A DNA stretch of 64,000 nucleotides from the NCBI GenBank assembly GCA_050084515.1, contig CM114271.1, positions 24,366,001-24,430,000 on the forward strand, given 5' to 3'. Below the pieces are notes generated by a model. That model was not told the origin of the DNA. It searched no databases and worked only from the letters and a program-made list of their open reading frames with translations. Of the stretch, positions 7,692-64,000 are shown in pieces. The stretch comes from Blasia pusilla (Eukaryota). The translations under genes and the position numbers were made by a program. The stretch's first letter is position 1. Each line of letters opens with the position of its first letter.

Positions 7692-7941
<250 letters not shown>

Positions 7942-35797: not shown

Positions 35798-38700
35798 ATG
35801 GAGTATTCCTCAACAACAATCACATGCGAGAAGCTAGACAAGCATAATTACAATGTCTGGAAGTTTCGCATGATACAATTTCTCATGGGTCAAGAGCTAT
35901 GGGAGCTTGTCACAAGTGATGAGGCCAAGCCAGAAGGTGACTCAACATACTTGAATGTTCGCGCTTGGAACAAACGCGCAAGGCAAGTAATCCACTACAT
36001 TTCAATAACGATCAATTCGCCAATGATAGGTCACGTCCAAGATGTTGATACTCCGAAGGAGACTTGGGATGCATTGGAAAAGTTGTTCCAGACATCTACA
36101 AAGGCCAGAAAGCTTCAATTGAAACAAAAATTGAACGAAGTGAGGAAAGGATCGCAGAGCATCAATGATTATATTTTAATTATCAGACGTATTGTTGATC
36201 AGTTGAATAACATTGGAGTGACAATAGAAGATGATGATCTGATTTTATTCACTCTTCAAGGCCTTCCAAAGGATTACAAGTCCTTTGAGACCTCTTTCTC
36301 TGTGAGAGAGAAGTATCCAACCTTTTAAGAGTTAGTCCCTCTGATAATCAGTCAAGAGATGCGTCTAGTAGGCAGCGGTAGCTAGTCTAGTCTGCAAGAG
36401 AGTGGGCTATTTGCACGTTATGGATCAAAAAGAGACAAGGGTCATGGCAAAAACTTCCGTGGTCGTGGTGGATATCAAGCATATGGAGGAAGAGACACTT
36501 AATATAACGTCACTCAATCAACTACGAACCAGTACCAGACATGATCACAAGGTGATGATAATGGAAACCATTGCGTTCGAGGTCAACAGTAGAGGGTCCT
36601 TGGATCTTGCAATTACTGTGGGATAAAGGGTCACTATGCAAAGTTTTGCTTCAAGAAGAAGACATATATGAGAACATAAGCCTTACAACAAAAAAACTAT
36701 GTGGAACAACAATACCAAGAGCAGTACCAAGAACAAAAACATTCACAAACATATCATATCTTGGTCATGACTCATTATATGGGAGCCATGGTCAAGAAAG
36801 ACTCGACAGCAGATTGATACATTGACTCTAGAGCATCAAATCACATAACCTCACAAGCTAAATGGTTAAATAGTTTGCAGTCGGTGAAAGATCTTGCAAT
36901 TATGCTCATAGGAAATGACACTCAACATCATATCACTCATACCAGTAAAGTTCCAATAGCATCAAATAGTCTTCGTGCTTTTGGAAATATTCTTTATGTT
37001 CCTACCATTGCAAAAAACCTAATCTGTGTAGGACAGATAGTAGAACAGGATTATCAAGTGAAGTTTAACGTAGATGGTTGTTTCATTGAAATAATGGAGG
37101 ACCAGATTACGATAGCCACAGGAACTAGATCTGGCAGAATGTTCAAATTAGATGTTTCTATGCCAGAGATTCAAACATAAATGTATGGTCAAACCGGCCA
37201 ACAAGTCACAAATCTAAATATGTGGCATAAAAGAATTGGACATATGAATCTTCAAAGATTACAGAATCTTTCATCATCTAATATAGTAATAGGACTTCCT
37301 AAATTAGCAAGTCTCGCTATGTTAGAGGTATGTCCTGCTTGCCAATTTGGAAAACAAGCTAGATTTCCTTTTCCACAGCAAAGTAGAAGAGCATCCAGGA
37401 TATTGGAGTTGATGCACAGTTATGTGTGGACAACATCACAACATAACCTTAGTGGTTTCCAATACTTTGTTTCATTTATTGATGACTTCTCTAGATATAT
37501 ATGGGTATACTCTCTGAAAGCCAAGTAAGAGGTATTCTCAGTGTTCCAAATATTTAGAGTTCTAGTAGAGAAACAGATTGGAGAACACATTTTGAAATTG
37601 CGTTATCATGGAGGAGGAGAGTATCTTTCAACAGAGTTTGATGACTATTTACATCAAAATGACATCCAACGTCAAGTGACTTGTTGTTACAATCCACAAC
37701 AAAATGGAGTGGCTGAGAGGAATAATTGACATATTGCTGAAGCGGCACGAGCTATGCTGATTGAGAAGAACATGCCTAAGGTGTATTGAGCAGAGGATAT
37801 AGCATGTGCACACTTATTAATCAACCCAACTCCAACAACAAGAGTTCATGATAAAACTTCATTCGAAGTCTTCACAGGAAGTATTTGGCTGTATTTGTTA
37901 TGCTCATGTTCCTTCTGAGAGACGTCAGAAATTAGATCCCAAGTCTGAAAGATGTATCTGCATTGGCTATGCTCATGGAACTAAGGGATATAAGTGCTAC
38001 ATTCCATCCTCTAGGCAGCTTATTATTAGTCGGGATGTTGTCTTTGATGAGCTAAAGTCATGGTATGCTCCAACTGAGCCTATTCCACCTCTAAACTCAT
38101 TTGTTGAGGGGGAGAATATGATTGTAAACCAACAGACATTATCTTCAACTTCCCCAAGTACTAGTGCAGGATGAGGAGATGTCCTAAATTCATCAGTTAA
38201 ATCTGTGAGTCCCTCGATGGGAAGAGTACGTAATCAATATGTTGACACTAGTCAGAGCTCGGATCAAGTGTCAAAGGCATCTACCTTTGAACAATAACTT
38301 CGTAGATCAAGTAGAGTTATACATCCAATTCATAGATTCATAAATGAAGGTTTCCTTGCGACACATCATGCATATATGATGACTACCCTTCAAGAACAGG
38401 AGCCGAGTTGTTTTAAAGAAGCTGCAAGTAAAGTCGAATGGATTGAAGCTATGGAGGAAGAGCTTGTTGCATTAAGACATCAACAGACATGGGAGCCGGT
38501 TGATATACCTTTCGGTAAGGAAGCTATTAGTTATAAATGGGTTTATTAAATCAAGCGTAATCAAGATGGTACAATTAACAAATACAAAGCGAGGTTGGTG
38601 GCTAAGGGCTATCCACAACAATATGGCATCGATTACGAGGAAAAATTTTAGCCCTGTTGCAAAGATGGCAACTACGAGAAAAGTGGTTGCAATTGCAGTA

Positions 38701-39957
38701 AGTAAGAAGCGGAGATTCTATCACATAGACGTCAAGAATATCTTCTTCAATGGAGATCTATACGAGGAGATGTATATTACTCAACCACCTGGATACGAGC
38801 ATACCAAGTTTCCATTTTGCATATGCAAGTCGAAGAAATATCTATACGGGCTCAAACAAGCTCCAAAAACTTGGTATGGCAAGATTACATATCTCATACA
38901 AGAATTGGGTTTTAGGGTATGTGATTCTGACTCCTCGTTATATGTCTTGAGAGGACAAGATCATACGATTCTCACTGTGTTGTATGTTCACAATCTCTTG
39001 ATTACTTGGAGTACTAAAGAAATTGTATAACAAGTCAAGCTTAAGTTACAAGCAGAATTTGATATGAAGGACTTGGGAGAACTCAAGTACTTCCTTGGTA
39101 TTGAGTTTATCAAGGTTGGAGAGAGCATGTGGTTACTACAACGACAATATGCTCTTCCTATGATTTCAAAATATGGTATGACGGCTTGTAAGCCAATCTC
39201 TACACCTTTGGACGAGAGTGTGAAGCTAAGAGTGGATGAAGGAGAATTGCTTGCAGATTCTTATATGTACACGCACATGGTTGGAAGTTTGATCTATCTA
39301 AGTATAACCATACCAGCTTTGAGTTATGTTGTTGGCCTAGTGAGCCAATTTATGCAAGCACCTCAAAAACCTCACCTTGATGCTGTAAGGAGGATTATGC
39401 GGTATGTGAAATTCTCTATTCAATTCGGGCTTCAATTCGAACCTTCTACGAGTCTTCAATTACAGGGATTCACATATGCTGATTGGATAGAAAGCGTGTT
39501 TGATCGACATTCCACATCCGGTTATTCATTTACCTTGGGAAGCGTAGCTATAAGTTGGGCTTCAAAGAAGCAACCTACAGTTGCTTTATCTTCATTAGAG
39601 GCTGAGTATAGAGGAGCAACCAATGCAACATGTGAGGCAGTGTGGCTTTATCAATTACTTGTTGAGATTGGTGTTGGTAACTTAGGACCTAGTGTAATAT
39701 ATGCAGACAATATTAGTAGCATCAAACTTGCTAATAATCCTCTGTTTCATGCTCGTACAAAGTATGTTGAGGTGCACTATCATTTTATCAGAGAGAAAGT
39801 GCTTGCAGGAGAAATTGATCTTGTGTATATAGGTATAGATCAGCAAATTGCTCACATCTTTACAAAGGCATTGTCTAGAGATAAGTTTGAGATGTTTAGA
39901 AATGATTTAGGCATTAGAGATATCGATATGAGTTTGAGGGATAATATTGAAGATTGA
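35798..39957 (+). pseudogene. gag-pol: Copia gag-pol, disrupted by stops and frameshifts
   Basis: Gag (KLDKHNYNVWKFRM). Zn knuckle CNYCGIKGHYAKFC at ~36608. PR IDSRASNHIT at ~36821. INT (WHKRIGH...CPACQFGK, FIDDFSR, PQQNGVAER). RT ([22 protein letters not shown]). RNaseH (STSGY...FHARTKYVEVHYHFIRE). Confidence 0.93.
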
Positions 39958-47274: not shown

Positions 47275-48948
47275 TTACTTCCCTGAATCCAGTGCACCTA
47301 AAGTGTCGTCAAGCATTCTCATCTCCTCTTGATGCAATTTGCACTGCTCTTGCAAGTGCTGCAGTCTTTGAGACATTAGACCAAGCTCAACATAACGGTG
47401 CTTTAGCCACTTCTTCTGCATCTCTTCCTTTGCTGACCTACTGGCTGCGCTGGTATGACTTGGTCCTGCAATCCCGGGTACCAAGCCCTGAAATCTCCAC
47501 AGCTCCGATGCGCCAGGAATGCCTCCAAACCTATGCTCCTCAGCTGCAAGGAACTTGGCTTTCATTTCCTCCATTACTTCCAGACAGCTGGCCTTCAGAG
47601 AATTCAAGAAGTCTACTTTCCAGGGGTTCCCATCTCCTTGAAACTCCTCCACCGTCGGTGCGCTCCCCCCACCGTGCTCGTCCCTGGACCCCTCTTCTCC
47701 TTTCTTCCCTGGTTTCTGCTTCTCATCTTTAGGAAGGTGAGGAGTGAACTCCAGCAGGGGCTTCGAAACAAATGGAGACACTACTGCGCTTTGGAACGCC
47801 TTTTTACCCTCAGTTTTTCCGAGGTTGTTGTTGTTCAACGCGCCGGTCTTCCCTTTCGCGTTTTCTTCTTCATCTTCCTCCTCTTCGGAACTGGAGTATT
47901 CATCTTCCTTCTTCGTTGGCGCCGCTGTCCCAACTGTGATTTTAGTCTGCTTACTCGGAGGTGTGGCCGCTTCGTCATCCGACTCTCCTTCCTCATCTTC
48001 CTCTTCCTCTTCGGGCAACGACGAGCTCACGGCTCGAACTCCATAATTTTCCGGCCCGGAACCCCAAACAACCTCCCAGAGTTTGTAAATTTTCTCCTCG
48101 TGTACGTTCCTGAATGGATTTGGTAGTTCCGCTTGTAACTTACCCGCCAGAACAGCATATCTCGACTTCATGCGCCTAACCTTTTCACTGAGCTGCTGCT
48201 CAGTGACTTCAAATGGTATCGCCTTTGACTGTAGCAAGGTTCGCCAGTAACTATCATTCTTGGTGTTGGCGATTTTCAATCCAGCCCTCTTGTCTTTAGA
48301 AAGCTTCGTAGCAAGCGCAATCTCCGAATCCGCTGTCCAATGCGCCACTTTCTTTACCTTCACTGGAGACTTCTCGCTTTCCCCTTTAGTTAATACAGGC
48401 TTCGCATTTCCATTCGGCGACGGTGACGATGCTTTCCGCTTCCTGTTTGCCGCCGCAGCTTTGGCAACCTCCCCTTTCACACCCGGCATGGGTTTCGCCT
48501 TCTCTACTTTCGGTGCTGGTCCTTTGCCTCCTTTCGGCGCCACTTCAGCCTTCGGTGCTTTGGTATCTGCTCTCACGGGAGATGCAGGCTTCAAAGGTTG
48601 GATGCGTGCTTTCTCCACAACCTTCGTCTCTCTCTTCTTCTTATTCGCAGGCTCCTCCGCCAAAGCTTCCTTTCCACCATTGGCATCTCTGTTCCTCTTT
48701 CCCGCAGGATTATCCAAGACATCAACCTTCCCTGCTGCACTCAAATTCCCCTCCCTCCGCACTGTCGTGAACCCTTCCCCCTCATCGTCGCTCTCCGACT
48801 CTTCCTCCTCCCCTTCCTCGGACTCCTCCTCGTCCTCGTCCTCCTGGACCTTCGGCTGCACCGGCTGCACACTGCTTCTCGTTTCCTCTTCGTCCGACTC
48901 GCTCCCGGACTCCTCACTACTCGATACTCGCTTCGACTGGCTAGACAT
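47275..48948 (-). CDS. GeBP-like: GeBP/STOREKEEPER-like (DUF573) transcription factor, 557 aa, intronless CDS
   Basis: Long intact GC-rich ORF, first ATG at 48948 (MSSQSKR). Acidic Ser/Glu N-terminus. DUF573-like core WTADSEIALA...EQQLSEKVRRMKSRY...FRNVHEEKIYKLWEVVWG. C-terminal helix KKWLKHRYVELGLMSQRLQHLQEQCKL, as in GeBP proteins. Confidence 0.88.
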   Translation of the reverse strand: MSSQSKRVSSSEESGSESDEEETRSSVQPVQPKVQEDEDEEESEEGEEEESESDDEGEGFTTVRREGNLSAAGKVDVLDNPAGKRNRDANGGKEALAEEPANKKKRETKVVEKARIQPLKPASPVRADTKAPKAEVAPKGGKGPAPKVEKAKPMPGVKGEVAKAAAANRKRKASSPSPNGNAKPVLTKGESEKSPVKVKKVAHWTADSEIALATKLSKDKRAGLKIANTKNDSYWRTLLQSKAIPFEVTEQQLSEKVRRMKSRYAVLAGKLQAELPNPFRNVHEEKIYKLWEVVWGSGPENYGVRAVSSSLPEEEEEDEEGESDDEAATPPSKQTKITVGTAAPTKKEDEYSSSEEEEDEEENAKGKTGALNNNNLGKTEGKKAFQSAVVSPFVSKPLLEFTPHLPKDEKQKPGKKGEEGSRDEHGGGSAPTVEEFQGDGNPWKVDFLNSLKASCLEVMEEMKAKFLAAEEHRFGGIPGASELWRFQGLVPGIAGPSHTSAASRSAKEEMQKKWLKHRYVELGLMSQRLQHLQEQCKLHQEEMRMLDDTLGALDSGK

Positions 48949-51096
48949 CTTCGAAGAATAGACCAACGTCCAGATATCCTACCGCGAAAATGTCCGCTCC
49001 GCTCCGCCCCAAATCACAACGACCAAGAACGCAATTGATCGCAAACAGGCGAAACGTCAGTGCATTTTTCCTTCCAACGTAGACTCTGCTCCCCGCAACC
49101 CTATCGGCCGAGGAACCACACGCGCTCCTCGTCTCTCCCCACTCCGCGAAATCACCCTCGAAACGCCCTCGCCTTCGACTTTCAAAAACCCTGGACAGAG
49201 ATCGTGACATAAGTCCCTTCCCCTTCGTGCGTGGAGCGGGGGCGCGGGTAGCGGACCTCAAGCATGGCGTCCCGAGACGTGTTTTCATCCTCGGCAGCAT
49301 TCCGTCTATCCATCCGTCCTTCCGTCCGTCCGATTGTCAGTCAGTCAGCATTTCATACGAGTTACCGTTGGCCAGAAGGGATTTATTTGGAAACCCGGCC
49401 GGGAAACTTTTAAGATTTCTGAAGCTTACCGGACCTTCTGACAATGTTCCCGGCGCTAATTTCTTTACTGAATTGTATACCCGATCAAATCTCCAGGAAA
49501 GACCCGACCGTTAGTGACGGTCGTCGCCGGAGGCCCACCCACTTGCGAAATCCTCCCGACCAGGTCGTTCCGAAAATTTCACCTCTGTCGCTACCTACTG
49601 TAGGATCTTCCCTGCGCATTCCGTCACGTTCACAGCTCCTGTGGCCGACTGTTCCGTCCCGCCCCGCCCGTTAAGGGCGCAAGGTGCTTGCAGTTACACT
49701 CTCCCGCTGGACAATCATGAACGTTCACGCCGCCAGGTACCAGAGGCGACTACGGACGGCACCCTGGAGGACCCCCTGTTTGTGTAAGGCCTGCGACCGC
49801 GCAACTACGCTGTACATGGAAATTCAGCTTTCCTTTCCTTTCCTTTCATCGAACACACTCACGTCTTGTACTCGCTACTTCGCTACTCCGCCACCGTCCC
49901 TGGCACCTGGGACGACTATTCTGTCGGTCTGCCATCAACTGCAACGGCTCTGAAAAATTTCGGGTTGGGACATGAGAATCCATCCATGTGTCGATCCGAG
50001 GCGACCGCTTCCGTTTTTGAAATGCCGAAGGCGGCTCCATTGCTTGCTTTACAGGCGGGTGGCAGTTGTGGCCCAAGGGGTCAAGGTTGTTGCCGGTCAT
50101 GTTCAGGTGGTAACCGAAGTTAGCTTGATGGATTTGCTGGCCACTCCAATCGTAGGCGGCTTGTGGGCTCCAACAAACCCACCGATGCACTTCATTTTCT
50201 TTTCCACACAAATTACGCATTCCAAATTCATTTGATTTTTGAGAGCCATTGTATGGATTAGGGAAGGGACCATGGAAGGAGGAGGACTATGGCGTAGATG
50301 GAGGGACGTCTAGAATTTTGTTTATAACTATTTCCATGATGACCCAATCTTTTCAATCTAAAACCCAATGTGTTCATCTTCTCGAGCTTGAACTTTGGGG
50401 TCTTCTTTTTTCCATTTAAGATTGAGTTTTCCAAAGTTCTTGGGATCTTTGGACCTCCTTCTCTCCTAAATGTGCTCGTAGATTCCTATACGCAATTTCA
50501 CACATAGAGTGATATTGGGTTACCATCGATTTGAGGGATTCCTGTGGCTTTTCTGGATCTTTTGATATGGGCTGGGCCCAACATTACGAAATCATTCTCT
50601 CATAGCAATCATTGGTGGGTGGCTCACTTACTCCTCACATCCTCTTTTTGGGTGTTTACAATTTCTTTCATAACTTTCTTCTGGTGTTTGGACTTGTTTC
50701 GATCATCTTGATGAGCTCGTTCTTTTCATATCAAATAGGTTTGCTAGTTGTTCTTCCTTCTCCGTAGGCGCCTATTTTTTAGTTCAGGTTTATTTTAGAT
50801 CAATTCCTCCCAAAAAATTTCCTTGTTCTTTCAACTCCTTACCTTACTATTTCGCCCCTACATACGTTTGCCATCTCCTTAAGGACATAAGAAATTCTTA
50901 TTCTTGAGCCACCTCTTCTGATACCATATAGATCACTTTTCCTATTCAATTGTTTTTTATATTTTTCTTATAATAACTTTCAATCATAAATTCAGTATTG
51001 TCTAATCTTCTTCTCTCCATCTAAATTTCTTTTGGACGGATTCCACTACTTTTGTTTTTCTAGTTATCCTCATGCTTTCTCCAAACCACGTTTCAT

Positions 51097-54000
51097 ATGT
51101 CTGCCCTTGTCTTCGATGACTTTCCTACCTTTGCTTCTATGTCATCAGAGATGGAGTTGGATTCTCCATCTACTCGCTTATCTGGTTTTACACGCCCTCC
51201 TACAACCGTAACATCTCCCCCTTGTTCACCTCCTCATCGTAGATCTCGTCATTTTCCTCCAAATGCTAATACACCCGTTACACTCGCTGCATTTCTTCCG
51301 GATTCTCTTCTTCTCCCCTCTTTATCTTGTCCTATTGAGCCTAATCTTGATCCATTATTACCAAATCCTTCTATTTTGCCATCCCCACATATCTCTCTAT
51401 GCTCTTGCTTCCAACTCCCATCTATTCTACCCGAATATCCCCTCTTCCTCCTCCTCCTTCCCCAACCTACTTAGCCCCTCATCATCATCCATCACCACCT
51501 CTTGCACCTCCCACCTCCTCTCCTTGTAACCCTTCCACTTCTCTATTTGTACCAAAGGTTCGTAGCATACCTTGTGGTAAGGAGTTTGCTCCTAATGGGA
51601 TCAAAAGACATCAGCGGTAGTGTCGATCCATGCATGGGCCTTCAATCCCTAACCCGATACCACCTCCTAATGCACTCCCCACAACAACTACTTGGACTTG
51701 GTTAAGCCAAATTGATCTCCTTCGCTCCTCCATTTAGGTCTTCCTCGTCTTAGACTCTACACTCACATTCCTATTGCTCTTCGCCCATCACCCAACAAGC
51801 TTTGCTTTTCCCATTAGAAAGGTTAGCGCGTGATCCCACAAATATCAATGCTTGGTATCTCCTATTATTCTTCCCAAAATGGATTTTAGTCCTCCCCTCC
51901 AAGGGGTGATGTGACAGGTCATCGTGAAACCTCCACACGTATTCAATGCTTTATGTCAGGGGATTGGGAGAATCTTCAGAATGAGCGTGTACTTCGAGCA
52001 GAGGCCTTAACTACGGCTCATCTGTCTTAGCATGCCAATAATGGGAGGCCATCAATACAACAACGCCTTCGAAAAAGTCTACTTTTGGGGCAGGTTGGTG
52101 AGTTTTCACGTGTAGCTTGAGCATTGGGTCCTCTTTCTCCGGCGGTTCCAAGTGCAAAAACAATGGCTCTCTTAGAAGCTCTTCACCCTCCTTCAAGTGG
52201 CCATGCTCCACCTTTTGTGGAAGAGTATACAACAGAGCTTGACTTGGAGGTTTTCACAAGGGCTTTTTTGCATATTCCTTGCTTATCAGCAAGCGGACTA
52301 TCATGGATGGTTTTTGAGCATCTTCGCGATTGCTTTATCCCGACAGATTCAACAAGTGGCTTTGTCTCTCTATATAAGGTGTGTGCATATATGGCGGCAT
52401 GCCGTCTCCCGTTCTCTATCTCTAGGCTCTTAGGGGTTTGTCGTTTGTTGGCTATGGATAAGCCTCCTTCAAGTGTGCGCCCATTGGCTATTGGAGAGGT
52501 TTTATACTGCTTGGTTAGTCGATCCCTATGCTTGCAATTTTGTCCTCACTTTAGTGCCCACTTATTTCCTCATCAATTTGGAGTGACAACTCCTAGAGGT
52601 TGTGAGGCTGTGGTGCATGGGATCCGTTCCACTCTTGATATTCATCCAGATTGGGTGGCAATTCAAGTCAATGTGGCTAACGCATTCAATTCAGTTTCTT
52701 GTGCGGCCATCTTTGAGGAGTTACGTTGTGCAGGAGGACAACTTGCGATCCTCATTCCATTTTTTTGCTCCTTCTATGCCTATGATACGCCCATTATCTA
52801 TTCTCATCCTTCCGGAGAATATAATATTCTACAATCGGCTTGTGGCCCACTCTTTGCCATTGCCCACTTTCGTGCCCTTCGAGCATCAATGCAAGCATTT
52901 CCATCTTTTCTTTTCTCTTCTATTGTTGATGACACTCATATTATAGGTCCTCCTTGTGAAGTGGTTCCTGCTTATACCCATTTTGTGGAGCAACTCTCTT
53001 TCTTAAACCTTAAAGTCCAACCTAGTAAATGTTGAGTATGGTCTCCTTCATGCCTTCCCTCAACATTCATCCCCCCTACTCCTGATTTTCCCATCTATAT
53101 TGAAGGGATTAGGGTTCTTGGGGTCCCAATACGCTTCATCGACTATGTCTCAAAGTTCTTGGATGAGGCCTTTTTGGAAGACGTAGAATGGCTTCATTTC
53201 TTACCTTATCTAGGGGATCCCCAAGTGGCTTATGGGATTCTCTCCCAATATTTTCTACGACGTCCTTCCTACCTTCTTTGCACTTGTCCTCCCACTTCAA
53301 GGTTCTTACATTAGTTGGCCTCTTTTGACGCTTCTATATTGGCAACTTTTTGTCAAATTCTTGGCCCGAATACATTTGAGGGAGAGGATGGTGTCTTTGC
53401 TTCAAGACAAGCTATCTTGCCTATTTGTTTTGGAGGAGTGGGACTTTCCTCCACAATCGCATCTGCTCCCGCAGCCTTTTTGGGGACTTGGGCGTTGGTA
53501 GCACTGATTATGGCTTCAAGGTTTCTCCAAGGAAACACACCTATCTTGATGGATCATATCGCCCATGTAGAGGAGGGGGACTTGTTATTTCAACAACAAC
53601 TGAGATATGCACGAGCTCTTCTTCCTCTTGCTACACAAGAAATTCTACCCCCTTTCAATCAATTGATTACGGAAGGGCTTCATCAACTTCAAGAGCATAT
53701 ATCCGAGAATCTGCATCAAATCAACTTTTTGAGCATTCTTTCCAAGGCATCCTCTGACGCTCATCGAGCTCGTATGCAATCATGTGCGGGTACCAGAGCG
53801 GAGGCGTGGCTTACTGCAAATCCTCTTATTCTTCCATTTTTTCTTCCTCGAAGTATATTCTCGATAACTTTGCGGTTACGTCTTGGCCTTTCCCATCCTT
53901 CTCTATTAGGTGTGCCGAATTGTATATGCGGGGATCCCATTGATGCCAAGGGTATCTATATTCTCCGCTGTGCATATGGTGGAGAACGAACGCGCACACA

Positions 54001-54589
54001 TAATGTCATTAGAGAGGCAGTAGCATCGGTAGCTTGTACTGTAGGATACACCGTTGGGCAAGAGCAACTCCATGTCCTAACTTCAACCATACAAGCAACC
54101 TCTCGTCGGAGAGTGGATCTTGTTATGTCTCGAGGTGGATTCCGGATACTAGGTGATGTGGTGGTTACTGATCCAACACGTTCTGAATTGGTATGTCAAG
54201 CCGCACATACCAAAGGTTTGGCGGCTGAAGCTACAGCAAGAATCAAGGAGTTAAGTTATAATGTGAGATATGCGACTGATGGATTTATTCCTTTTGCAGT
54301 GGAAGTATTCGGTCATTTATATGTGTCTTTTGATACTTTCCTGAAAACATGTGCTCACCACTCCCTTGAGAATCACCACCTTGCCCCTTCCCGTAGTCCT
54401 TCTCTCTCTGTAGTTACTACTTATTTTTGGCAATGCATCTCAGTGGCCTTACAACGTGCATAAGCATTGGCATTGATACGTCGTGTGGAGGTGGTGGGGG
54501 GTCGCTCGCCTCGTCGTCCATTCACGTTTGACCAACCACTCGTATTCTTGTCATATTTGTTTCACGCTATCAATCGCGTAGCTCGTTGA
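51097..54589 (+). mobile_element. CRE-like non-LTR retrotransposon (Zn finger-RT-CCHC-RLE single ORF), pseudogenised
   Basis: N-terminal Zn finger SIPCGKEFAPNGIKRHQR*C at ~51564-51623. RT motifs RPLAIGE, PHQFGV...GCEAVVH, NVANAFNSV, IVDD (the QGDP segment is deleted). C-terminus CICG...YILRC, RTHNVIR, RRVDLV...GDVVV, KELSY, FIPFAVEVFG. Terminal stop at 54589. Confidence 0.85.
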
Positions 54590-55296
54590 GTTGGTGTTTA
54601 CGTTGGCTAGTTGCCATTTTCTTTTATGCACTTTTTGACTCCTCTTTTGAGATGTTCTTACCTTTCTTTGTCCTCTTTTGAGGTTTATTTTATAATAAAG
54701 AGGATATATCACTTAAATTCATATCAAAGTTCTATTTTGATAAGCCTATTAACATGATTTAAGTGGTTAGTTTTCAAGACATGTGAAGCGTTGCATGAGC
54801 ATAATATAAATTTTTTTGGTTAACCTTAATTTATATTGCCAATTTCTCATGTTCTTTTTCCCATGGAAGATTTGTTTTTTTAAATTTCTCATTTTATCCC
54901 CTCCAAGACTGTCATACCACTCTATATGGTAGAAGTTCCCACTAATATTGACATGAAGCACATATGTTGAATTTTGATTGGAGATTCATTTGAGGTATAT
55001 CCGCACCCATGATTGTCAAATGCGATCAGGCAATCTTAAATCCTTAGACTATCAAGGAAGTCTTGTCCAAGTTTTGAATGACTTATTTATATTGGGGAGT
55101 GAAGGATCAAGTTATTATCTGACCTTGCTTAGGATTTTTTTGCGTTAGAAGTGACCCAAGATCCAGACTCAAGAGATGTGATGCTAGTTGATTGTAAACT
55201 GGACAAATATATGAGTACGTTTTGCAATTGAGTGAGTGGTCTACTAAATGCTAGCTTTCGCAACACCAATGTTCAAGAGAGTAGGTACACAATCAT

Positions 55297-56304
55297 TGTA
55301 TAAAATTTCTAAAGAAGCATAACTGGTGGGATACGACTCTCACACTCACACACCACCATGGAGAACGAAATTTTGCAATGAGATAATGAGTGGAGGCTGG
55401 TCCCTTTCTCAATTAAATAGGATATGTATAAGCTTTCCTAATCCTAATCCTAACCATAGTTAAAATAATTGCACTTAATTGACTAACCAAGATTAAGCTT
55501 CCCTACTTTGTGTGAGTACCAAATGTAGCAGTTCGAGTGTCTGATGAGCTTGACTATAACTAAGTCTTCAATACTCCCCCTTAAACTCATATCGATATCT
55601 CTAACATCTAAACCCTTTCTAAACATCTCAAACTTATTTCTAGACAATGTCTTGTAAAGATATCATCAATTTTCTGATCTGTACCTATATACACAAGATC
55701 AATTTCTCTTACAAGCGCTTTCTCTATGATAAAATGATAGTACATCTCAACATGCTTTGTTCAAACATGAAACATAGTGTTATTAATAAGTTTGATGCTA
55801 CTAATATTGTCAGCATATATTACACTAGGTCCTAAGTTACAAACACCAATCTCAACAAGTAATCAATGAAGCTACACTTCCTCACACGCTATATTGGTTG
55901 CTCCTTTGTACTCAGCCTCTGTTGAAGGAAAAGAAATACTTTTATGTTGCTTCCTTGAAGCCCAACTTACAACTGCGCTCCCTAAGGTAAATGAATAGCT
56001 AGATGTGGAGTGTCTATTAGACACGCTTCCCGGCCAAACATAATCTGTAAATCCCTATAATTGTAAACTCGATCAAGGAAGGTTCAAATTGAAGCCCCAA
56101 TGGAACGGAGAATTTCTCATACCGCATAATCCTCCTCACATCATCAAGGTAAGTTTTTCGAGATCCTTGCATAAATTGGTTCATTGGGCCAACTACGTAG
56201 CTCAAATGTAGCCTAGTTACAGTCACATAGATCAAACTTCCAACCATGCACCTATACATATTAGAATCTGCAAGCAACTCTCCTTCATCCACTCTTAGCT
56301 TCAC
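55297..56304 (-). mobile_element. Truncated copia (RT end, RNaseH, 3' LTR 55297-55573), cut by the gypsy element
   Basis: VKLRVDEGELLADSNMYRCMVGSLIY matches 39220-39300. The LTR is the reverse complement of the 39945 LTR. PPT AAGGGGGAG on the minus strand. Confidence 0.9.
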
Positions 56305-56618
56305 TGTCGTGCGCATACATATCGCTACACAATATACATCATTGTCATCGAATATACACACAAATACGCGCGATCCCATGCTAACTCATGACATCCAAAC
56401 AATGAGACAAGAAGTACCAAAATATCTCCTATCGCCCCTCTAGCTGGCGGTTAGGTCCCTCTAATTCTAGATAGCCATCTATCCCTACCTACCATGATAT
56501 ACATCTCTCGGATGCTAAGAGCAAAAAGATCGGATGCTCATATGGGCCCATCGTTAGTCGCCTTCTTGTCATCCATGTCACAGACACAAGTCAGAATCTA
56601 GAACTACCTACTCTATGT

Positions 56619-56757
56619 ACATCTGGGACACATCGATGCATCATCCCTGAGGAACCCTAGTGAGAGATGACGTCAAACATGCCATATGCCATCCCCTCAA
56701 ACATCCATCATAAACTAGCATAGTGGTTGCAACACGGGCATAACCACATAACATACA
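56619..56757 (-). pseudogene. PHD finger (C4-H-C3) at integrase C-terminus
   Basis: CMLC...MLVYDGC LRGWHMAC LTSSLTRVPQG, then a frameshift, then CPRC. One Cys has become Tyr. Confidence 0.85.
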
Positions 56758-56999
56758 TCGCAAGTCTCCAGGAACTACTGCTAAGCTCAGATCAACTCTG
56801 CCATCAATGTTAGGAAGGTGAAATGGCACACAGTTACGCACATGGTCCTTCCAAACCATACCATCGCGTCCCTCCAATAAGAGAACACGAAATGGCAAAA
56901 TCTCATGCACTCTCAAGATGGTGCGCCCTGTAGTCACATCCAACGTCGTGGCTGCCATTTTCTACAAGTAGACATAGTCTCCCCAATGAAACCTCCGAA

Positions 57000-58203
57000 T
57001 AGTCAGTCGATAACCACCTCCCCAAATAGTCGCATACCTCAACGTATCCCAATGTTGCGCAATTGCCAAGTTCTTAAACGTCATGGGCATCACTCTCTGA
57101 AACAACTCAACCCTCTAAGACCATCCTCGCATCCATACATCAAGGTAATCAAGGTTCAACATCTCGCTAACATCTTGACGAATGGCCGTAGGTAAATCCG
57201 GCTCTCAACCTTAAAGTAGCAAGTACAGTGAGAAAGACCCTGAGGATGCATGCGTGCTGAATCTGTATCCCATTGCCAACCAAGGCAATTGGAGATCCCA
57301 ATCTTGTAAGTGACCTCTATGCAAGCCATACTTGCGCAATCCTCTCTTCACCATCTCCACAACCCTCTCCGCTACTCCATCTGCCTCAAGATGATCTTGC
57401 GAAGTGGAACGGTGGTCAATGTATGCATGATCACACGAGGCTGAAACTCCCCATGAAACTATATATCCAAGTTTTTCAACACCTCAGTAGGTGCACCGCA
57501 ATGACTCAGCACTCGATCTAGGAAGGCATACGCTACTCCCTCACTTGCTCTGTCAAGCAATGCAACCAACTCTAGAAGTCGTGAACTCTAGAACTCTAGA
57601 AGCGGTGATGGTCGAGCACTTCGAGAAGTGCTCGACCATCACCAACATATAACGAATATAGCGCTCTGTCAAAGATAAAGGTCTTGCAAAATCCAAACTC
57701 CATATATAACTTAAATCCATGATCGAAAGTGGATGCAACTGTGGAGTTGGAGCATTGAACGATGCCCTGACCCGATCACAAACTATGTACCTGGCAATAA
57801 ACTATTGAACGTCAGTCTGCATGCCTCGCCACCAATACGGCATCTGGAGCAAGCTATACATCCGCTTCACTCCAAAATTCCCCAACTCCTTGTGGGCATG
57901 ACGCACCAAACGTGCTCTCTATGAAGGATGAGGCACTACTCGTACTCTACCATCCTCCCAAACTTGCAACACATGTGTCCCCTCCCACCAGAATCTTTTA
58001 GCTCGATGTAGGATCTGATCCCGCTCTCTAGCACCCACTATGCTCGCGACGGTGCCAGTACGCAGATACTCCAAGACCACTCCATCGTCGTGAATATCTC
58101 GGCCACCTGTTGTCTCCTCACCAACCCCTGGATCTAAGGACTGTTCATCAGATCTCGCCCTCGAAGTCTCAACACTCAGATTCTGTAAAGCCAACAAGCC
58201 CAA
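57000..58203 (-). pseudogene. Gypsy integrase (HHCC + core), disrupted
   Basis: AHKELGNFGVKRMYSLLQMPYWWRGMQTDV...CDRVRASF...LHPLSIMDLSYIWSLDFARPL...MLVMVEHFSK. Confidence 0.85.
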
Positions 58204-58377
58204 ATAGGCTGACGCGTGCTATCCTGGCACCAACTCCTCATCACTCTCACCATTCCAACGAGCTCGAGTCGCATCTCGCTCACTCAAGCATGAGTTACGG
58301 CTCAAACCATCTGCATCCTGGTTGAGCGTCTCAAATCTATGCACCACCTGGAAATCATACTCCTACAACAACATGGC

Positions 58378-59719
58378 TCACCTCGCAAACTTCCATGTAA
58401 GCTTGTCGGACTCCATCAACCACTTAAGTGGTCGATGATCAGTAATACTGGTAAAGAGGTTGCCGAATAAATGACACCTGAAATGTGCAACATCCCACAT
58501 TGCAGCCAAGCACTCACCCTCATATGAGCTATACTTTGTCTCTGCAACGTTGTTCGAGTGACTAGCGTAAGCCACCATGAGCTCTCTACCCTCATCGTCA
58601 TGTTGGGTGAGCACGGCTTCAAGCCCCAACATTCTCCAATCTGTATGCAACAGGAAAGGACACCCCCTGATTGGTCTCCTCAATATGGGCACAGATGTCA
58701 ATCTGTCCTTGACCAGCAGAAATGCTATCTCTTGCTCATCCCCCTAGGGCCACTCCCGACCCACCTTGGCCAGCAAGGTCAGCGGCTTTGCAATCAAAGT
58801 GAAACCCTTGACGTACTATCGATAGAAGTTTGCCAATCCCATGAATGCACAAACTCGACTCACATCTGTAGGGCGTGGAATGCGTGAAATAGCCTCTACC
58901 TTTGTCTGTTGCACACCAAGGACCCTTTGGGTATATCGTATGATCCCCGTACTCAATTTGGTTGTAGAAGAACTTGCACTTGCCTAGATGTAGCTTTAGC
59001 CCATGTAACTGCAATCGTCGAAATACCTCCTCTAGATGTTGCTCATGCTCCTCAACTGTGGCGCTAAAGACTATGATATCATCAATATAACACCTCGCAG
59101 AATCCAAACCTGCCAAGATCCTATCCATAACCCTATGAAACTCAGCCGAGGCATTCTTTAACCCATATGGTAAGAACCGCCACTGGTACAATGAATCCTT
59201 CTTGTGAGGATCGATGTCCCAAAATTCCGTCTTCTGCCTCTCCTCCAATCTGATAGGCTGCTGATGGTATTTGGCTCAAAGATCTAAAGAATTGAAGACC
59301 TTTGCATGCCCAATAGCATCAAAGATCTCCTCAGGGATGGGCATGGCATACCTATGGGACTTCGTATGCGGATTGATAGGTCGGTATTCTCCATACATCC
59401 ACCTATGCGTCCAGTTGCCATGCATATCCTTCTTGGCGGGCATGATAGTGGCAGATGCATACTCTCCATGCGACATCTCTACTAGTCCTACTCCAACCAA
59501 GTCCTGGCTCCTACTTTGAATTAGAGCCCTCTCCATGTCACTGTACTTGTAGGGTCGTCGGAAGATTGGCGTGTCACTCGACAACTCAATGTGGATCCCT
59601 GGATCCTTCAGCGTACCCAAATCATGCATGCTAAATGCAAAACAACTCCTATAACTCTTAAGGAACTCATATATCCGGCGCCGCTTTCCTCTTGTCAACT
59701 TGGGCTCCCAAGTCTCCAT
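58378..59719 (-). pseudogene. pol: Gypsy RT and RNaseH, disrupted
   Basis: PIFRRPYKYS, YRPIN...YAMP...FNSLDL, LPYGLKNASAEF...YIDDIIVFS. RNaseH LHTDW...VAYAS...YEGECLA...ITDHRPLKWL. Confidence 0.93.
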
Positions 59720-60059
59720 TGTGACTATGGTAGGACTCTCCGATGTGGGTGTCGGTGGTTGCTATGATGCAACCTCGTCTCGAACAATAGAACTCGATTG
59801 CTCCCCTGCAACCATTTGCAAACTTTGATCTCCACATGTAGTACTCGGAACCATGCTCAATGTTGTGGCTATCATCTCCCGACGTACCCGCAAAACATCC
59901 CAAGAAGTCCAAGGGTGTCTCTCCCAATCACCCTTGGTGTATCGATCACCTCGGGTCTCACCCCCTTCCATTGCCTTCACCGTCTTGGTAAGCATGGGCT
60001 CACCAACGCAACAACTGTAATCTGTCGCAACCTCAAACAACATTGCTCAGCCACTCCTA

Positions 60060-60930
60060 AGCTGAAAATCCATGTCCAGGAGTTCAGGTCTATCGCCTGA
60101 CCCAAGACATGACATCGTGACGCCTCTAAGAGTGATATATTGTTGTCAGTCTTGTGGGGAATCCCATCGCTTGCTCTCGCTCATTGGCGTTAGGCTCCAC
60201 CAACAGCTGTACCTGGTCATCCCAAACTAAGCCAGGTCCGGCTTCCTTGAATGCATAGGAAGCGGGAAAACTCACCAATGTGGGAAAGGCTGCTCTTTGC
60301 ATGCCAATCCTGTTGACCACAGTCAACGACGGTCGATCATCGTGCATCACTACATGTGATTGACGACCTGGATCCAGAATAGGATCCACCAACAAATCGG
60401 AGGGGCGCTCCACTCTTGCATACGCCCTCCACAAAACCTCATGTGGCACCAAGTTGGTCCACCAAAGACACGGGCGATGCGCTCGTGAACCTACACTCGC
60501 CGCATCCAAAAACATTGCTAAGCCGATCCATGCGCGTACTTTGAGACTGATGCTCATGTAAGTGTCGCAAGATCCGCATCATCTCCCAAAACAACCTAGA
60601 CCGAGAGTCAGCTAATCCACTACCCAATCCAGCACTAGACTGGCCCTGACACGGCCAACCAGCAATGACCAAGTCCATGATCCCTACCCACTCCAAGTCC
60701 TTCACCCCCAACAATGAAATGTCCCTCGGTAGGGAACTCTAGTATCCCTGAATTTTGGACGTAGATAACAAGGTGGGAAATCAGAGGCGTAAGTGCGCCA
60801 TATGCTGACATGAAGCACATCTGGCAACCTCATCAACCTCCACGTGTAGGTATTGCAGCACATGCACTTCTGCCTGCAAAACAATAGCTAAACCAGTGTT
60901 AATCTCTCCAAAGAGACCTAGCATGCGAAT
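60060..60930 (-). pseudogene. C5 cytosine DNA methyltransferase domain, DNMT3-like, inside gypsy pol
   Basis: Motif I IRMLGLFGEINTG. Motif II YLHVEVD. Motif IV DLVIAGWPCQ (catalytic PC). Motif VIII LDAASVGSRAHRPCLWWTNL. Motif IX EREQAMGFP. Motif X VLGQAIDLN at ~60105-60080. Motif VI (ENV) is lost in a deletion at ~60545. Confidence 0.9.
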
Positions 60931-61270
60931 ATCCTCCTCTAGGATGCACCAGACAATCGGGGTGGTGTTTAAAGGGGTCATAGTAGCACTCCTGGCTACC
61001 TCGGGTTCCTCTGATCCGTCACGCTCCATGCGGTCTGCATATGCTCAGCGGCTAGCGTCAAAGCTCCTTAGTCGAGCCCCAAACCGGCACCTCTCCTCCA
61101 CGGACTAATGGGCCTACCATGAGACTCCTCTCCATAGAAATGTCAAGAACGAGAGTCTCCTCTGCCTGGACATATCCCTCAATCAAATCACTAGGCCAAA
61201 TGATGGCACTGCTAGATGCTGCTAAGGTCGCCATCTCTCCTGGTCGTCGCTCGATCACTCCACCAATGAA

Positions 61271-61798
61271 TCAAATGGGTAATGAGCTAAGGCACCCATC
61301 ACCTAACTGCCATCCTGGTATGTAGGACGTTGACTCCTCCCAATAATCCAGGGAAAACCCCATCATGTACAATACTGCTCTACCAACCAAGACGTCGTAC
61401 GACTCGGCATCGGTTGCTATCGCCTTGGGTCGCACCACAGACTCATCAGTAGGATATCCCGGGCGAATCCTCACCACAACCTCCTGTTGGATGATATACT
61501 GTGTGGTACTCGCTCCACCCAAGGATGTATGTATTCGGAATGGAAAATGCTCCATATCGGCTCTTGTCAAGCCCAATCCTCTGAATGCCGCTTTTCCCAA
61601 CATCAGGGGTTGCACTCATGAATCCAACAAGACGCGCTGCGGTCTAAAAACTCTACCTCTTAGACTCACCAACTGGAAAACCTCTCCTTGGTTATCCAGT
61701 AATACAACACCAGGAGAAGCCATGGCACGCTCTATCGCGGGTCTAGCAGGCATCTCCGCCATCCTAGCAGCCGCAGCTTGCCATGAATCTGAAGCCAA
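61271..61798 (-). pseudogene. Gypsy aspartic protease region
   Basis: RVLLDS*VQPLMLGK (DSG with GGA>TGA) ... YDVLVGRAVL. Confidence 0.85.
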
Positions 61799-61928
61799 GC
61801 ATAGGCTCCAAGAGCATGTCCATCACCTCCTCTGCAATCACCCTTAAGTGTGAAGCAGGAACACCAACTCCATGCTCACATAGCGTAGCGGTCAGCTAGA
61901 AAACCTTGGCCGGCATACCTCCCAACGT

Positions 61929-63205
61929 TGTCGTGTCGAGAGCCTTTCTTCAAGTAAGGGCAGGCCTTCTAGCTACGGCAGACACGGTCGATGCAAGATG
62001 AATTCTCTGAGAAGACCTCCTTTTTCAATATAAAATTATTATGTATACTCTCCATTCTCTCACGACAGGTATCACAAATGGAAGTGCCAAGGCGATCACT
62101 TCTTCGTAACATTGAACCCCGAAATTCCTAACTATAAAATCCCTATAAACTATTTTACGCTTGTATACGAGGAAGATAGCACAACTAGTATTAAACCCTA
62201 CTTGAGCAGGCCTATTGACGTCCATGGATTGTTATATAAGGACATACAAAGTACAATCCCATGTCCTTTCATATGTGACGATAGGAAGGATCACCGGAGT
62301 TGGAGATTGAATGATCTGGTTCATGAACGCCTCCCCAAAGTGATAAACTACATAGCGAGTGAACCTGTGCCTATCTACAAAGAGTATCTTGACATGATAT
62401 GGATTAAGGAAAGGAAAGTCGGACACAACTCGTGCTCCACCCCTATCCATGCTTGACAGACATTTTCTACTCTCCTCAACAATGGGTTTTGGCGGAGTTA
62501 TTCTCCGAAGAGGGGTAATCCACTCTCATTGGGAAAGTAACAAGCCAAAACATTCACTATTTTAATATGACTAAACTCCTCTAAGGTGACAACCCTCTCA
62601 TCTCCACACACACATCACACTCTAGAAACCTCTCGAATAATAGACCATGGTCAAGTTACTCTCCCAAGAGGGGCGATCCGTTCTCATTGGAAGAGCAAGC
62701 AATCCCAAAGTCATACACTCAAGAGTGACACGAAAGACTCAAGATGTGGAATAGAAGGTGATGAACCCTTGAAGGTCCCTCCTCTTTATATACTCACAAG
62801 AGATCCACAAGAGTACGAAATAGAGCTAATCGTATCTTGTGCCACATGGCTTCCTCTCAAGGCTTAGCCAATCGCATTTTGACACAAATAGATTTCCTCT
62901 TATCTCTTCCAAAATATCCTCTTTTACCCACTTGATATTTTCCAAATTACCCCAACTAACCTAGCCACCAACCAAGCCTACTTTTGCTTTTCATTAAAGC
63001 ACCGACCTCACTACTTTACTTTTATAAAGTCATCTTTTATTTATTACCTCTTTTCTAAAGTTAGGCCCGCATAAAAGAGGCACCATAAAGAGGTTTAAAC
63101 ATGGGGATTTATTTTTCCTAAGCTAATTTACTTAATACTAATAAAACTCTATCTAACACTTAACGAGGAAGGAGTTTACACACTGGCTGATTTTACTATA
63201 CGACA
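61929..63205. mobile_element. Solo LTR (~1277 bp) nested between gag and PR of the gypsy element
   Basis: Inverted termini TGTCGT...ACGACA. Flanks ACGT/AGGT. A partial second copy lies at 11802-12102. Confidence 0.8.
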
Positions 63206-64000
63206 AGGTCATAACATTGGAAGCAGAAAATAAAGGAGTGGGGCATACAACAGTGGTTGCCCCGAACAACGTGCTCGACACATGCTCCTCCTGAACATCA
63301 GCAATAGGAGTCATCGCACTTGCTTCTCCCATCGCCCTCCGTGCATGCACACCAACAATATCACCAACACTCCGGGAACTCTGATCAGGACCCATCGATG
63401 GGGTCCTCATCGCCTCGGACAATGTGAAAGACTGAGGAAGCCTTGTCTGTTTCCTAGCTTCCCCTCGCTGTGGATCCAACTATGCGGCTACTCCATACGT
63501 AACAACTGCGGTGGCCTCCATCTGGGCAACCCCGCACATCCAACCAGGATCCTCCATATCTCTAGCTGCTCCATAACACGTTGATGCCACGGATCCGACA
63601 TCGAGTAACCTAAATGCCATGTCGGAAATCTACTGTTGTAGTTGTTGTATCTGAGCAACTATCCCAACCTCACGCCCGACGTCTCTCTCAACGCGTCTAG
63701 GTGGTGGAACTCTACCTCCTCCACGGGCAACTCAAGTTCTTTGTTCCCCAACGGGACCACTGGGTGCACGACCTCTAGGCCCACCCAGACCGGCAACTTG
63801 CTCTAGTGTCCTCTTTGGCCCTCATTCTGGACATACCTCACGGTGCAAGCTGAAACACGTGTCACGTGTGTGACTGTACCTCTGAAAATAGTCACACTGA
63901 TAACCTCCTGGTGCAGCACCATCTCCTCCTTCATGTTAAGGCACGCGTCCATGACCCTCACAAGTGCAATGATGCTGGTGATAGGCTCCACCACATGCCC
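63206..64000 (-). pseudogene. gag: Gypsy gag C-terminal region with zinc knuckle
   Basis: Minus-strand frame YQCDYFQRYSHTRDTCFSLH at ~63903-63844, a CX2CX4HX4C knuckle with one Cys changed to Phe. Confidence 0.75.

Follow-up and report, generated by a model that had tools for sequence, protein, structure and literature searches.

We analyzed a 64,000-nucleotide stretch of the Blasia pusilla genome (assembly GCA_050084515.1, contig CM114271.1, positions 24,366,001 to 24,430,000 of the forward strand; hereafter the window, whose own numbering is used throughout) and found that its minus strand holds the remains of a Ty3/gypsy long terminal repeat (LTR) retrotransposon with a cytosine DNA methyltransferase (DNMT) domain between protease (PR) and reverse transcriptase (RT). 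The evidence leaves us highly confident that the domain belongs to a dead, truncated copy of such an element (copy 1), and that a DNMT3-like enzyme is a fixed and selected part of the family. Judged by sequence, the family is present in land plants, in liverworts as well as mosses, and copy 1 is an ordinary dead member of it.

A first-pass annotation, made from the letters of the window alone, had placed a DNMT3-like methyltransferase at 60060-60930 and quoted five motif strings from it, in canonical order on the strand of the pol genes. All five strings are present in the minus-strand translation. The location was right and the range slightly narrow, the full domain covering 59986-60987. The domain and its motifs, the latter read from the minus-strand translation, are the following.

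59986-60987, minus strand: decayed DNMT3-like C5 cytosine methyltransferase domain (PF00145 match, homologues 56-65% identical, alignment with intact relatives)
60892-60915, minus strand: motif I, LFGEINTG
60646-60660, minus strand: motif IV, GWPCQ
60450-60485, minus strand: motif VIII, RAHRPCLWWTNL
60156-60182, minus strand: motif IX, EREQAMGFP
60082-60105, minus strand: motif X, LGQAIDLN

Translation and stop-to-stop frames over 59500-61800 gave the canonical, colinear order I-IV-(VI)-VIII-IX-X along the minus strand. The piece that bears motif IV (60439-60738, minus strand) matched PF00145 (DNA_methylase; E 4.1e-9, 36.7 bits against a Pfam cut-off of 22), the profile that the annotation had proposed as a check. 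The remaining pieces of the domain in copy 1, too short or too diverged, had no Pfam match singly and still aligned to intact homologues at 56-65% identity. The annotation had also called the copy dead, and it is. Two in-frame stops (60781-60783 and 60739-60741) interrupt the domain, its frame changes three times (near 60541, near 60140 and near 59990), and motif VI (ENV) is missing in a gap of ~27 residues at the first of these changes. The full catalytic set (I, IV PCQ, VI ENV, VIII RxR, IX and X) is not found in copy 1, whose DNMT is a pseudogene of a C5-methyltransferase family member.

The domain lies between protease (61061-61813) and RT (58736-59761) on one strand, as the annotation had it, and the Ty3/gypsy domain order PR-RT-RNase H-integrase runs along the minus strand. 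The window also contains a second copy of the element (copy 2). The parts of both copies are given below (P and L numbers are our handles for related proteins and loci; ORF, open reading frame).

63387-64000, minus strand: gag fragment, interrupted by stops and extending to the window's edge (residues 305-490 of Marchantia P0013 map to 63995-63387 by tblastn)
61926-63208, no strand assigned: foreign insertion of ~1.3 kb that separates gag from protease and does not belong to the family (reads; spacing of P0013)
61061-61813, minus strand: protease region, VLLDS*VQPLMLG (P0013 residues 584-828 align, 47% identity)
59762-59764, minus strand: in-frame TAG at the DNMT/RT boundary, then CAA CCA (homologous to the terminal stop of ORF1 in relatives)
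58736-59761, minus strand: reverse transcriptase, two ORFs in one frame split by a stop (RVT_1, E 1.9e-19 on 58736-59275)
58378-58743, minus strand: RNase H (RT_RNaseH, E 2.2e-23; RT_RNaseH_2, E 4.2e-22)
56644-58119, minus strand: integrase (57.2-58.1k) with a C-terminal PHD finger (P0016 residues 559-1036 and P0027 residues 320-1048 align, 35%)
1035-10409, minus strand: copy 2, far more decayed, AT-rich and DNMT-bearing (tblastn of P0010, P0013, P0002, P0019, P0018 and P0027)
~9575-10409, minus strand: DNMT of copy 2
~8692-9213, minus strand: RT of copy 2
~1035-2060, minus strand: RNase H/integrase pieces of copy 2

Copy 1 is decayed and truncated. Its gag fragment contains five stops in translation, and since the similarity to gag extends to the last bases of the window, the N-terminus of gag and the 5' LTR must lie beyond it. 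At the gap between gag and protease, ~94 residues of P0013 are spread over 1.6 kb in the tblastn alignment, and reads from other copies jump from 61842, 61891 or 61926 to 63204 or 63208 (99, 25 and 63 DNA reads). The DSG active site of the protease lies at ~61616-61630, and the stop codon at 61616-61618 falls on its G; the protease piece of copy 1 had no Pfam match, and the protease of its relatives matched Asp_protease_2 / gag-asp_proteas. The RT is 66-73% identical to RTs from bryophytes and metagenomes. The PHD finger, at ~56656-56757, was matched at E 0.0051, weaker than the Pfam cut-off. The 3' end of copy 1 stops at ~56305-56430 against a copia fragment, where the 3' LTR would be expected; reads have loose ends at 56305, 56340 and 56429, and similarity to copia covers 56002-56304. 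A search for direct repeats found no LTR pair in 50000-64000 of the window, the 5' end of copy 1 being outside and its 3' end cut. With protease site, DNMT and RT broken, and motif VI and the 3' end missing, copy 1 is incapable of the replication cycle that we propose below for its family. In copy 2, ~6.6 kb of other DNA separates the RT from the RNase H piece, and its RT is 70% identical to that of copy 1 at the DNA level.

Some further observations concern the DNA of copy 1 itself. The insert at 61926-63208 is high-copy in its own right (DNA depth ~1,100); its transcription is strong, and numerous RNA molecules start at 62950. An inverted copy of its first 304 nt, 88% identical, is found at 11802-12105, near copy 2. 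Within the integrase part, 57604-57643 forms a near-perfect palindrome of 40 nt. It is private to copy 1, since the majority of family reads, DNA as well as RNA, lack 42-44 nt at this place and have 2-4 different letters in their stead. A skip of 36 nt at 58815-58852 was confined to RNA, where the three runs gave 6, 11 and 7 reads with it and the DNA run gave none; neither strand shows GT..AG at its ends, and it may come from an expressed variant copy.

We mapped one whole-genome run and three RNA runs onto the window at >=85% likeness, with DNA depth taken as the sum of both mate orientations. All four carry the same species label as the runs that share part of the stretch; five sequencing runs matched the stretch (word shares 0.08-0.11), with no RNA run among them. 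DNA depth was 1305 and 986 in the two DNMT bins and 1915 in RT, against ~0.7 in the single-copy flank (eight bins, 44.0-50.0 kb), which corresponds to ~1,400-1,900 copy equivalents of the DNMT segment at >=85% likeness. In the three RNA runs, the DNMT bins were covered at 25-39 by first mates on the plus strand and at 0.2-3.8 by first mates on the minus strand, a polarity that matches that of an expressed minus-strand host gene at 47-49 kb and is thus sense. As the RNA reads are mostly <95% alike to copy 1, this is sense transcription of the family and not of copy 1.

The domain recurs in the same setting in other genomes. A protein search with the 150-aa C-terminal piece of the DNMT retrieved 16 longer proteins (E 5.7e-49 to 6.9e-24) from Sphagnum troendelagicum, Calypogeia fissa, Riccia sorocarpa, Marchantia polymorpha and metagenomes, nine of them with the match precomputed as PF00145, and the N-terminal piece of RT retrieved 12 proteins from Sphagnum fallax, Calypogeia, Marchantia and metagenomes. 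PF00145 scores among the relatives ranged from 28 to 51 bits. Relatives are also encoded by 77 metagenome contigs. Marchantia P0013 (1278 aa) joins a gag bearing CCHC knuckles to a protease and to a DNMT that has all six motifs. The metagenome locus L042 is intact: one in-frame TAG divides an ORF1 of 1369 aa, with protease and DNA_methylase (E 1.8e-13), from an ORF2 of 1047 aa, with RVT_1, RNase H, integrase and PHD. L021 has the same layout, and Closterium P0091 and P0200 and metagenome P0057 read CCHC-PR-DNMT(-RT-RNase H-integrase). A repeat pair flanking the element was found in three of 20 long loci (L003, L049 and L052), where LTRs of 307-344 nt, 90-94% alike, stand ~8.7 kb apart; no such pair was found in the other 17, and separately none in L042, L031 and L022. 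Judging from these relatives, an intact element would be ~9 kb long and read LTR-gag(CCHC)-protease-DNMT-in-frame stop-RT-RNase H-integrase-PHD-LTR. The DNMT is free of introns and in frame, as first proposed, in L042 ORF1 (1369 aa), P0013 (1278 aa) and the 2188-aa P0057. The idea that this frame is that of pol needs qualifying: the domain is in frame with gag and protease, and in the lineage of copy 1 it ends the gag-PR-DNMT ORF, with a stop before RT.

These results bear on the simplest alternative, namely that a fragment of a host DNMT3, or another DNMT-bearing mobile element, landed once in a single gypsy copy. Copy 1 is indeed full of other insertions (the insert at 61926-63208 and the copia fragment at its 3' end), and its DNMT bins are shallower than its RT bins. 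Such a one-off capture is nevertheless refuted, and we give it next to no probability: DNMT depth exceeds the single-copy level by three orders of magnitude, copy 2 likewise has a DNMT and then an RT, and gag-PR-DNMT-RT is colinear in Marchantia, Sphagnum, Calypogeia, Closterium and the 77 metagenome loci, with open frames crossing the junctions in L042, L021 and P0057. No joint that skips the DNMT was present among the 15 of 145 DNA joints shown. The domain is therefore a feature of the family, as the first-pass annotation had supposed. Three observations count against our reading of it as a fixed and selected part. The DNMT bins reach 51-68% of RT depth, so that some members may lack the domain or fall below the 85% likeness threshold there; most RNA reads of the family are <95% alike to copy 1, and the intactness of the transcribed copies is not established by them; and an ORF of >=400 aa is present in only 10 of the 77 metagenome loci, most copies everywhere being dead.

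When all solved chains were searched with a profile built from 13 relatives, DNMT3A matched best (E 6.7e-18), with DNMT3C (2.7e-14) and DNMT3B (4.6e-14) close behind. Chains of the plant methyltransferase DRM followed at E 1.9e-10 to 6e-7, through their C-terminal half only, and DNMT2, M.HaeIII and M.HhaI at ~2e-4; DNMT1 and the chromomethylases (CMT) were absent from the profile matches to solved chains. The alignment to DNMT3A is colinear, over profile positions 296-480 and, in structure, 323-335 columns. An AlphaFold model of the intact L021 domain, built on a 48-row alignment (pLDDT 84.9, pTM 0.80), pointed the same way: catalytic domains of DNMT3A/B/C made up 31 of the 31 Foldseek matches listed (E ~3e-19), and isolated catalytic-domain chains superposed at TM 0.79-0.84 with 20-21% identity. 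In 48 relatives, conservation is >=90% at the catalytic Cys, the Glu of ENV and the arginines of RxR. No PWWP or ADD chromatin-reader domain was found by Pfam in P0013, L042 ORF1, P0057 or P0091. Over the ORF segment that bears the DNMT, the ratio of non-synonymous to synonymous substitution (dN/dS) was 0.23 between L042 and L043 (dS 0.22), 0.14-0.17 between these two and L068, and 0.22-0.25 for L003 or L017 against L021, compared with 0.77 between two decaying sister copies; L042/L043 against L041 gave no dN/dS value, dS being saturated. Profile search and predicted fold thus support the earlier view of a DNMT3-like domain that is not permuted as in DRM2, and the substitution ratios support purifying selection on it between lineages.

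To examine the boundary between DNMT and RT, we followed the sequence upstream of the RT match in 60 loci and in both copies of the window. In 44 of the 60 loci, and in copy 1, the codon just before the RT-bearing frame is TAG or TAA followed by CAA or CAG, and the RT-bearing frame is in phase with the DNMT-bearing frame wherever both are open (L042, L021, L003, L017, L043 and L068); in these six loci both frames are long. A more distant lineage, represented by four loci, shows TAG GTGACT at that boundary codon. The ORF1 proteins of Marchantia and Calypogeia terminate at this stop, and three public gene models run from DNMT on into RT (Marchantia P0010 and P0026; Sphagnum fallax P0019) by skipping the 60-70 residues that bear it; these models look like introns invented over a transposon ORF boundary. 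The contexts of the 45 stops are as follows.

TAG CAA CCA: the window (59762-59764 and the next six bases), L021 and L022
CAG TTA after the stop: L042 and L043
CAA TCA after the stop: L068
CAA CCC after the stop: 37 loci, one near-clonal cluster
CAA CCT and CAA CTC after the stop: one locus each

The sequence UAG-CAR-YYA is the leaky-stop context of tobamovirus type. CAR follows the stop in 45 of the 45 cases, and in L021, the window, L042 and L068 the second codon after the stop varies (Pro, Leu, Ser) with YYA retained. The boundary stop is probably a site of programmed readthrough; if it is read through, the DNMT, like the protease, would be made at Gag level. The alternative is that ribosomes do not pass it, RT-RNase H-integrase-PHD being produced by reinitiation, from a separate transcript or by splicing, or that the stop is no more than decay shared by descent. 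Several findings speak for that alternative and against readthrough. The full CAR-YYA context is present in only six of the 45 stops (window, L021, L022, L042, L043 and L068), the near-clonal cluster having CAA CCC. No conserved RNA structure was detected after the stop: single-sequence folds varied, and for nine sequences RNAalifold arrived at -3.29 kcal/mol, the covariation term being positive and one of ten pairs covarying. The lineage of P0057, whose gag-PR-DNMT-RT order is carried by a single ORF of 2188 aa, has no boundary stop, and annotators have modelled an intron over the stop elsewhere. We nevertheless consider the alternative rather unlikely, given that the stop occupies the same codon in at least four diverged lineages, with DNMTs 39-65% identical to the query, that ORF2 is in frame 0 with ORF1 in all doubly open copies (1369 + 1047 aa in L042, for example), that YYA persists across changes of the residue after Gln, and that an RNA joint over 59762 is absent among the joints shown.

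To place the family more widely, a profile search of 1.84 billion representatives returned 6485 proteins at E <=0.001, 1590 at 1e-10 and 506 at 1e-30; the best 150 library matches all belong to the retroelement family. From the Protein Atlas came no more than generic PF00145 clusters, one of them streptophyte and two viral. Mapping PR, DNMT, RT, RNase H (RH), integrase (IN) and PHD onto 153 proteins with a DNMT segment of >=250 aa separated two architectures:

Type B, RT-RH-DNMT-IN-PHD: 89 of 153 rows
Type A, gag-PR-DNMT(-RT): 17 of 153 rows
Too short to tell: 46 of 153 rows
Full-length type B, flagged as ambiguous by the assignment rule: one of 153 rows

The DNMT tree divides along the same line, into a clan of 35 rows (17 type A, 18 untyped) and one of 118 (89 type B, 28 untyped and the ambiguous row), with local support of 100 in FastTree on all 153 rows and 99 in IQ-TREE on 32 rows of the A clan and 10 of the B clan. 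The IQ-TREE set omits P0145 (identical to P0139) and the near-identical Marchantia P0009 and P0026, and its B rows are 10 of 118, picked by hand. Named members of type A come from Marchantia, Calypogeia, Sphagnum, Riccia and four Closterium strains, those of type B from Scenedesmus sp. PABB004 (P0089, annotated 'pol') and Cymbomonas tetramitiformis (P0153 and P0169). Type B runs to single ORFs of up to 3456 aa, is also seen in L058, P0016 and ~85 more, and dominates the best 150 library matches. Like the family of the window, it has a homologous DNMT (46% identity of the C-terminal piece to P0016) and a PHD at the C-terminus of the integrase; unlike type A, it has its DNMT downstream of RNase H and upstream of integrase, all in one ORF, and forms the separate branch of the tree. 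The DNMT of the window, entered with X at each break, falls in an 11-row group (support 100) with Marchantia, Calypogeia, Sphagnum and three metagenome sequences, its best identity being 62% to a Sphagnum protein. Motif IV reads ECQ instead of PCQ in many type-B members and in some of type A (Closterium and P0057). The first-pass annotation had held that such elements are known from algae and are not standard in land-plant lineages; the algal occurrence is indeed known, and the family is nonetheless present in liverworts and mosses. What appears new in structural terms is a DNMT at the end of a gag-PR-DNMT ORF, ahead of a conserved in-frame stop, with a sister RT-RH-DNMT-IN-PHD form in chlorophytes.

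These features suggest a replication cycle that, taken as a whole (DNMT at Gag level, readthrough, packaging, methylation of cDNA and PHD-tethered integration), we put forward tentatively. The main translation product would be Gag-PR-DNMT, made at Gag level, and a minority of ribosomes would pass the leaky UAG to give a minor Gag-PR-DNMT-RT-RH-IN-PHD product. Both would assemble, Gag carrying the DNMT into the virus-like particle, where the protease would free it; the DNMT would then methylate new double-stranded cDNA de novo, before or at integration, and the PHD finger of the integrase would tether integration to a state of the histone H3 tail. The PHD of L042 (7963-8226) has as its nearest solved relatives the PHD fingers of CHD4, PHF12, PHF21A, KDM5A/B, ATXR5, KAT6A and UHRF1 (E 2e-16 to 1e-9). 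Several of these fingers read the unmodified H3 tail. By analogy, such relatives would hint at integration targeted to H3K4-unmethylated chromatin.

The observed/expected ratio of CpG was 0.28 in L021, 0.55 in L042, 0.61-0.64 in copy 1 and 0.43 in copy 2, compared with 0.84 in the neighbouring host gene, 0.55 in a LINE and 0.44 in bulk intergenic DNA. The depletion in the elements is compatible with self-methylation and not specific to it. Methylation of cDNA by elements of this kind was proposed by de Mendoza et al. (PMC5890265). The same authors also proposed a self-limiting device, in which the DNMT silences new insertions, lowers harm to the host and aids persistence of the family, and is not a shield against host defences (PMC5890265). 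The low CpG ratios of the elements against 0.84 in the host gene would fit such a device, as would the predominance of dead copies. We hold it to be unlikely, as the family has around a thousand copies or more and is still sense-transcribed, where strong self-silencing predicts otherwise, and as host methylation of any transposon also costs CpG, witness the values for the LINE and the intergenic DNA.

Another reading accepts the domain as fixed and has it do something other than methylate cDNA: methylate RNA, serve as a nucleic-acid-binding module, or act in trans on host chromatin. The weightiest point for it, and a point against the cycle proposed above, is that KnitGypsy-Dnmt3, the one Gypsy DNMT3 with a published test, yielded no methylation when assayed in yeast, a result described as inconclusive (PMC5890265). 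The replacement of the usual PCQ by ECQ at motif IV in the members named above points in the same direction, and de Mendoza et al. raise RNA methylation for a LINE-borne DNMT (PMC5890265). Conservation of the catalytic Cys, the ENV Glu and RxR at >=90%, dN/dS of 0.14-0.25 and a predicted fold that superposes on DNA-bound DNMT3 catalytic domains over 323-335 columns all argue for a working DNA methyltransferase, and the Symbiodinium DIRS DNMT3 enzymes (SymbioDIRS-Dnmt3) do carry out de novo CG methylation in yeast (PMC5890265). On balance a role apart from cDNA seems improbable to us, and methylation of the element's own cDNA or insertion site, the purpose suggested in the first-pass annotation, remains a tentative proposal.

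The window contains other features of note. An intronless ORF of 567 aa (47275-48978, minus strand), situated in a GC-rich island, encodes a GeBP-like DNA-binding domain (PF04504, E 1.3e-10) and is expressed (RNA depth 17-45, with a polarity that fits the minus strand); the relatives found were a protein of Physcomitrium patens (27% identity, the nearest named) and one metagenome protein. Together with the kin of the element, this gene would, on sequence alone, probably place the host among bryophytes or other non-seed land plants. A LINE-like element occupies 50004-54672 on the plus strand, with a weak RVT_1 match at 52121-53035; DNA depth climbs along it from 70 to 580, and its RNA is from the plus strand. 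Fragments of Ty1/copia, 80-81% alike, are found at 13266-14044, 35783-39957 and 55000-56385, and the part at 56002-56304 adjoins the 3' end of copy 1.

Hosts fight transposons chiefly by cytosine methylation, and a transposon with its own de novo methyltransferase thus inverts the usual picture. In print, transposon-borne DNMTs come from Symbiodinium and one charophyte alga. Our searches indicate that the green lineage widely carries the combination of Gypsy and DNMT3 (506 protein clusters at E <=1e-30) and that, contrary to a stated absence from land plants, liverworts and mosses have it too; in the genome of the window it forms a high-copy and sense-transcribed family. Because open copies are present in the genetic model Marchantia polymorpha, the function of a transposon-borne DNMT is open to experiment. 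There is also a warning for annotation in that bryophyte gene models labelled 'DNMT3-like' can be transposon ORFs with invented introns. A broader proposal, which we regard as doubtful, is that these elements form an old, green-lineage-wide clade of Ty3/gypsy with a PHD integrase, whose streptophyte form moved the DNMT into the Gag-PR frame upstream of a leaky stop, so that the enzyme would be produced and packaged at capsid-protein levels; it would be an active cDNA-pre-methylating system in land plants, still transcribed and with at least around a thousand copies.

The closest published system is KnitGypsy-Dnmt3 of Klebsormidium nitens (de Mendoza et al. 2018, PMC5890265), in which a Gypsy backbone bears a domain related to DNMT3. 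The paper places the acquisition 'in the K. nitens lineage' and describes few copies and a DIRS-like repeat arrangement (Fig. 4 legend). Later texts, in the parts available, cite that study alone for 'streptophytes', and an opinion paper from 2019 has DNA-methylase-encoding transposons absent from land plants (PMC6338049). Our literature search, which left subscription papers and supplements uncovered, returned no report of a Gypsy-DNMT3 element from a bryophyte or other land plant. Compared by published description and not by sequence, KnitGypsy-Dnmt3 and the family of the window share an intronless, non-permuted DNMT3-related domain in a Gypsy polyprotein, with conserved catalytic residues, and similar selection (Ka/Ks <0.2 in the former, dN/dS 0.14-0.25 in the latter). 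They differ in their repeats, which are DIRS-like in KnitGypsy-Dnmt3 and a plain direct LTR pair in the relatives L003, L049 and L052, and in abundance and range: few copies in one charophyte as against ~1,400-1,900 times single-copy depth and an occurrence in liverworts, mosses and Closterium. SymbioDIRS-Dnmt3 and the DAM-LTR / EpiLTR elements resemble our family in carrying a methyltransferase inside pol, and differ from it, as far as their available descriptions go, in backbone (DIRS, tyrosine recombinase) or enzyme (adenine methylase, DNMT4-like); their methyltransferases are described as independently acquired (PMC5890265; bioRxiv 10.64898/2026.05.21.726589).

Among cellular enzymes, DNMT3 (animal DNMT3A/B/C and its plant and charophyte counterparts) shares with the DNMT of the element the motif order I-IV-VI-VIII-IX-X and a short target-recognition region, and DNMT3A/B/C are its best match among solved structures (profile E 6.7e-18, TM 0.79-0.84). 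The element's domain departs from them in its ~20% identity, in having neither PWWP nor ADD, in its place inside a retroelement polyprotein and in a motif X that reads GQAMD. Plant DRM is likewise DNMT3-related and came second in the profile search, but is circularly permuted, with VI-X before I-IV, where the element's enzyme is not; the match to it covers profile positions 290-424, the C-terminal I-IV part of DRM. A parallel of another kind is offered by the chromoviruses, which are Ty3/gypsy elements with a chromodomain on the integrase. As in these, a chromatin reader is fused to the C-terminus of the integrase in the family of the window, the reader being here a PHD finger. The kind of element, a Gypsy with a DNMT3 domain, is thus known. 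New, to judge from the literature covered, are its land-plant lineage, its plain LTRs, a DNMT that ends the Gag-PR frame before a conserved stop, and its high copy number together with sense transcription.

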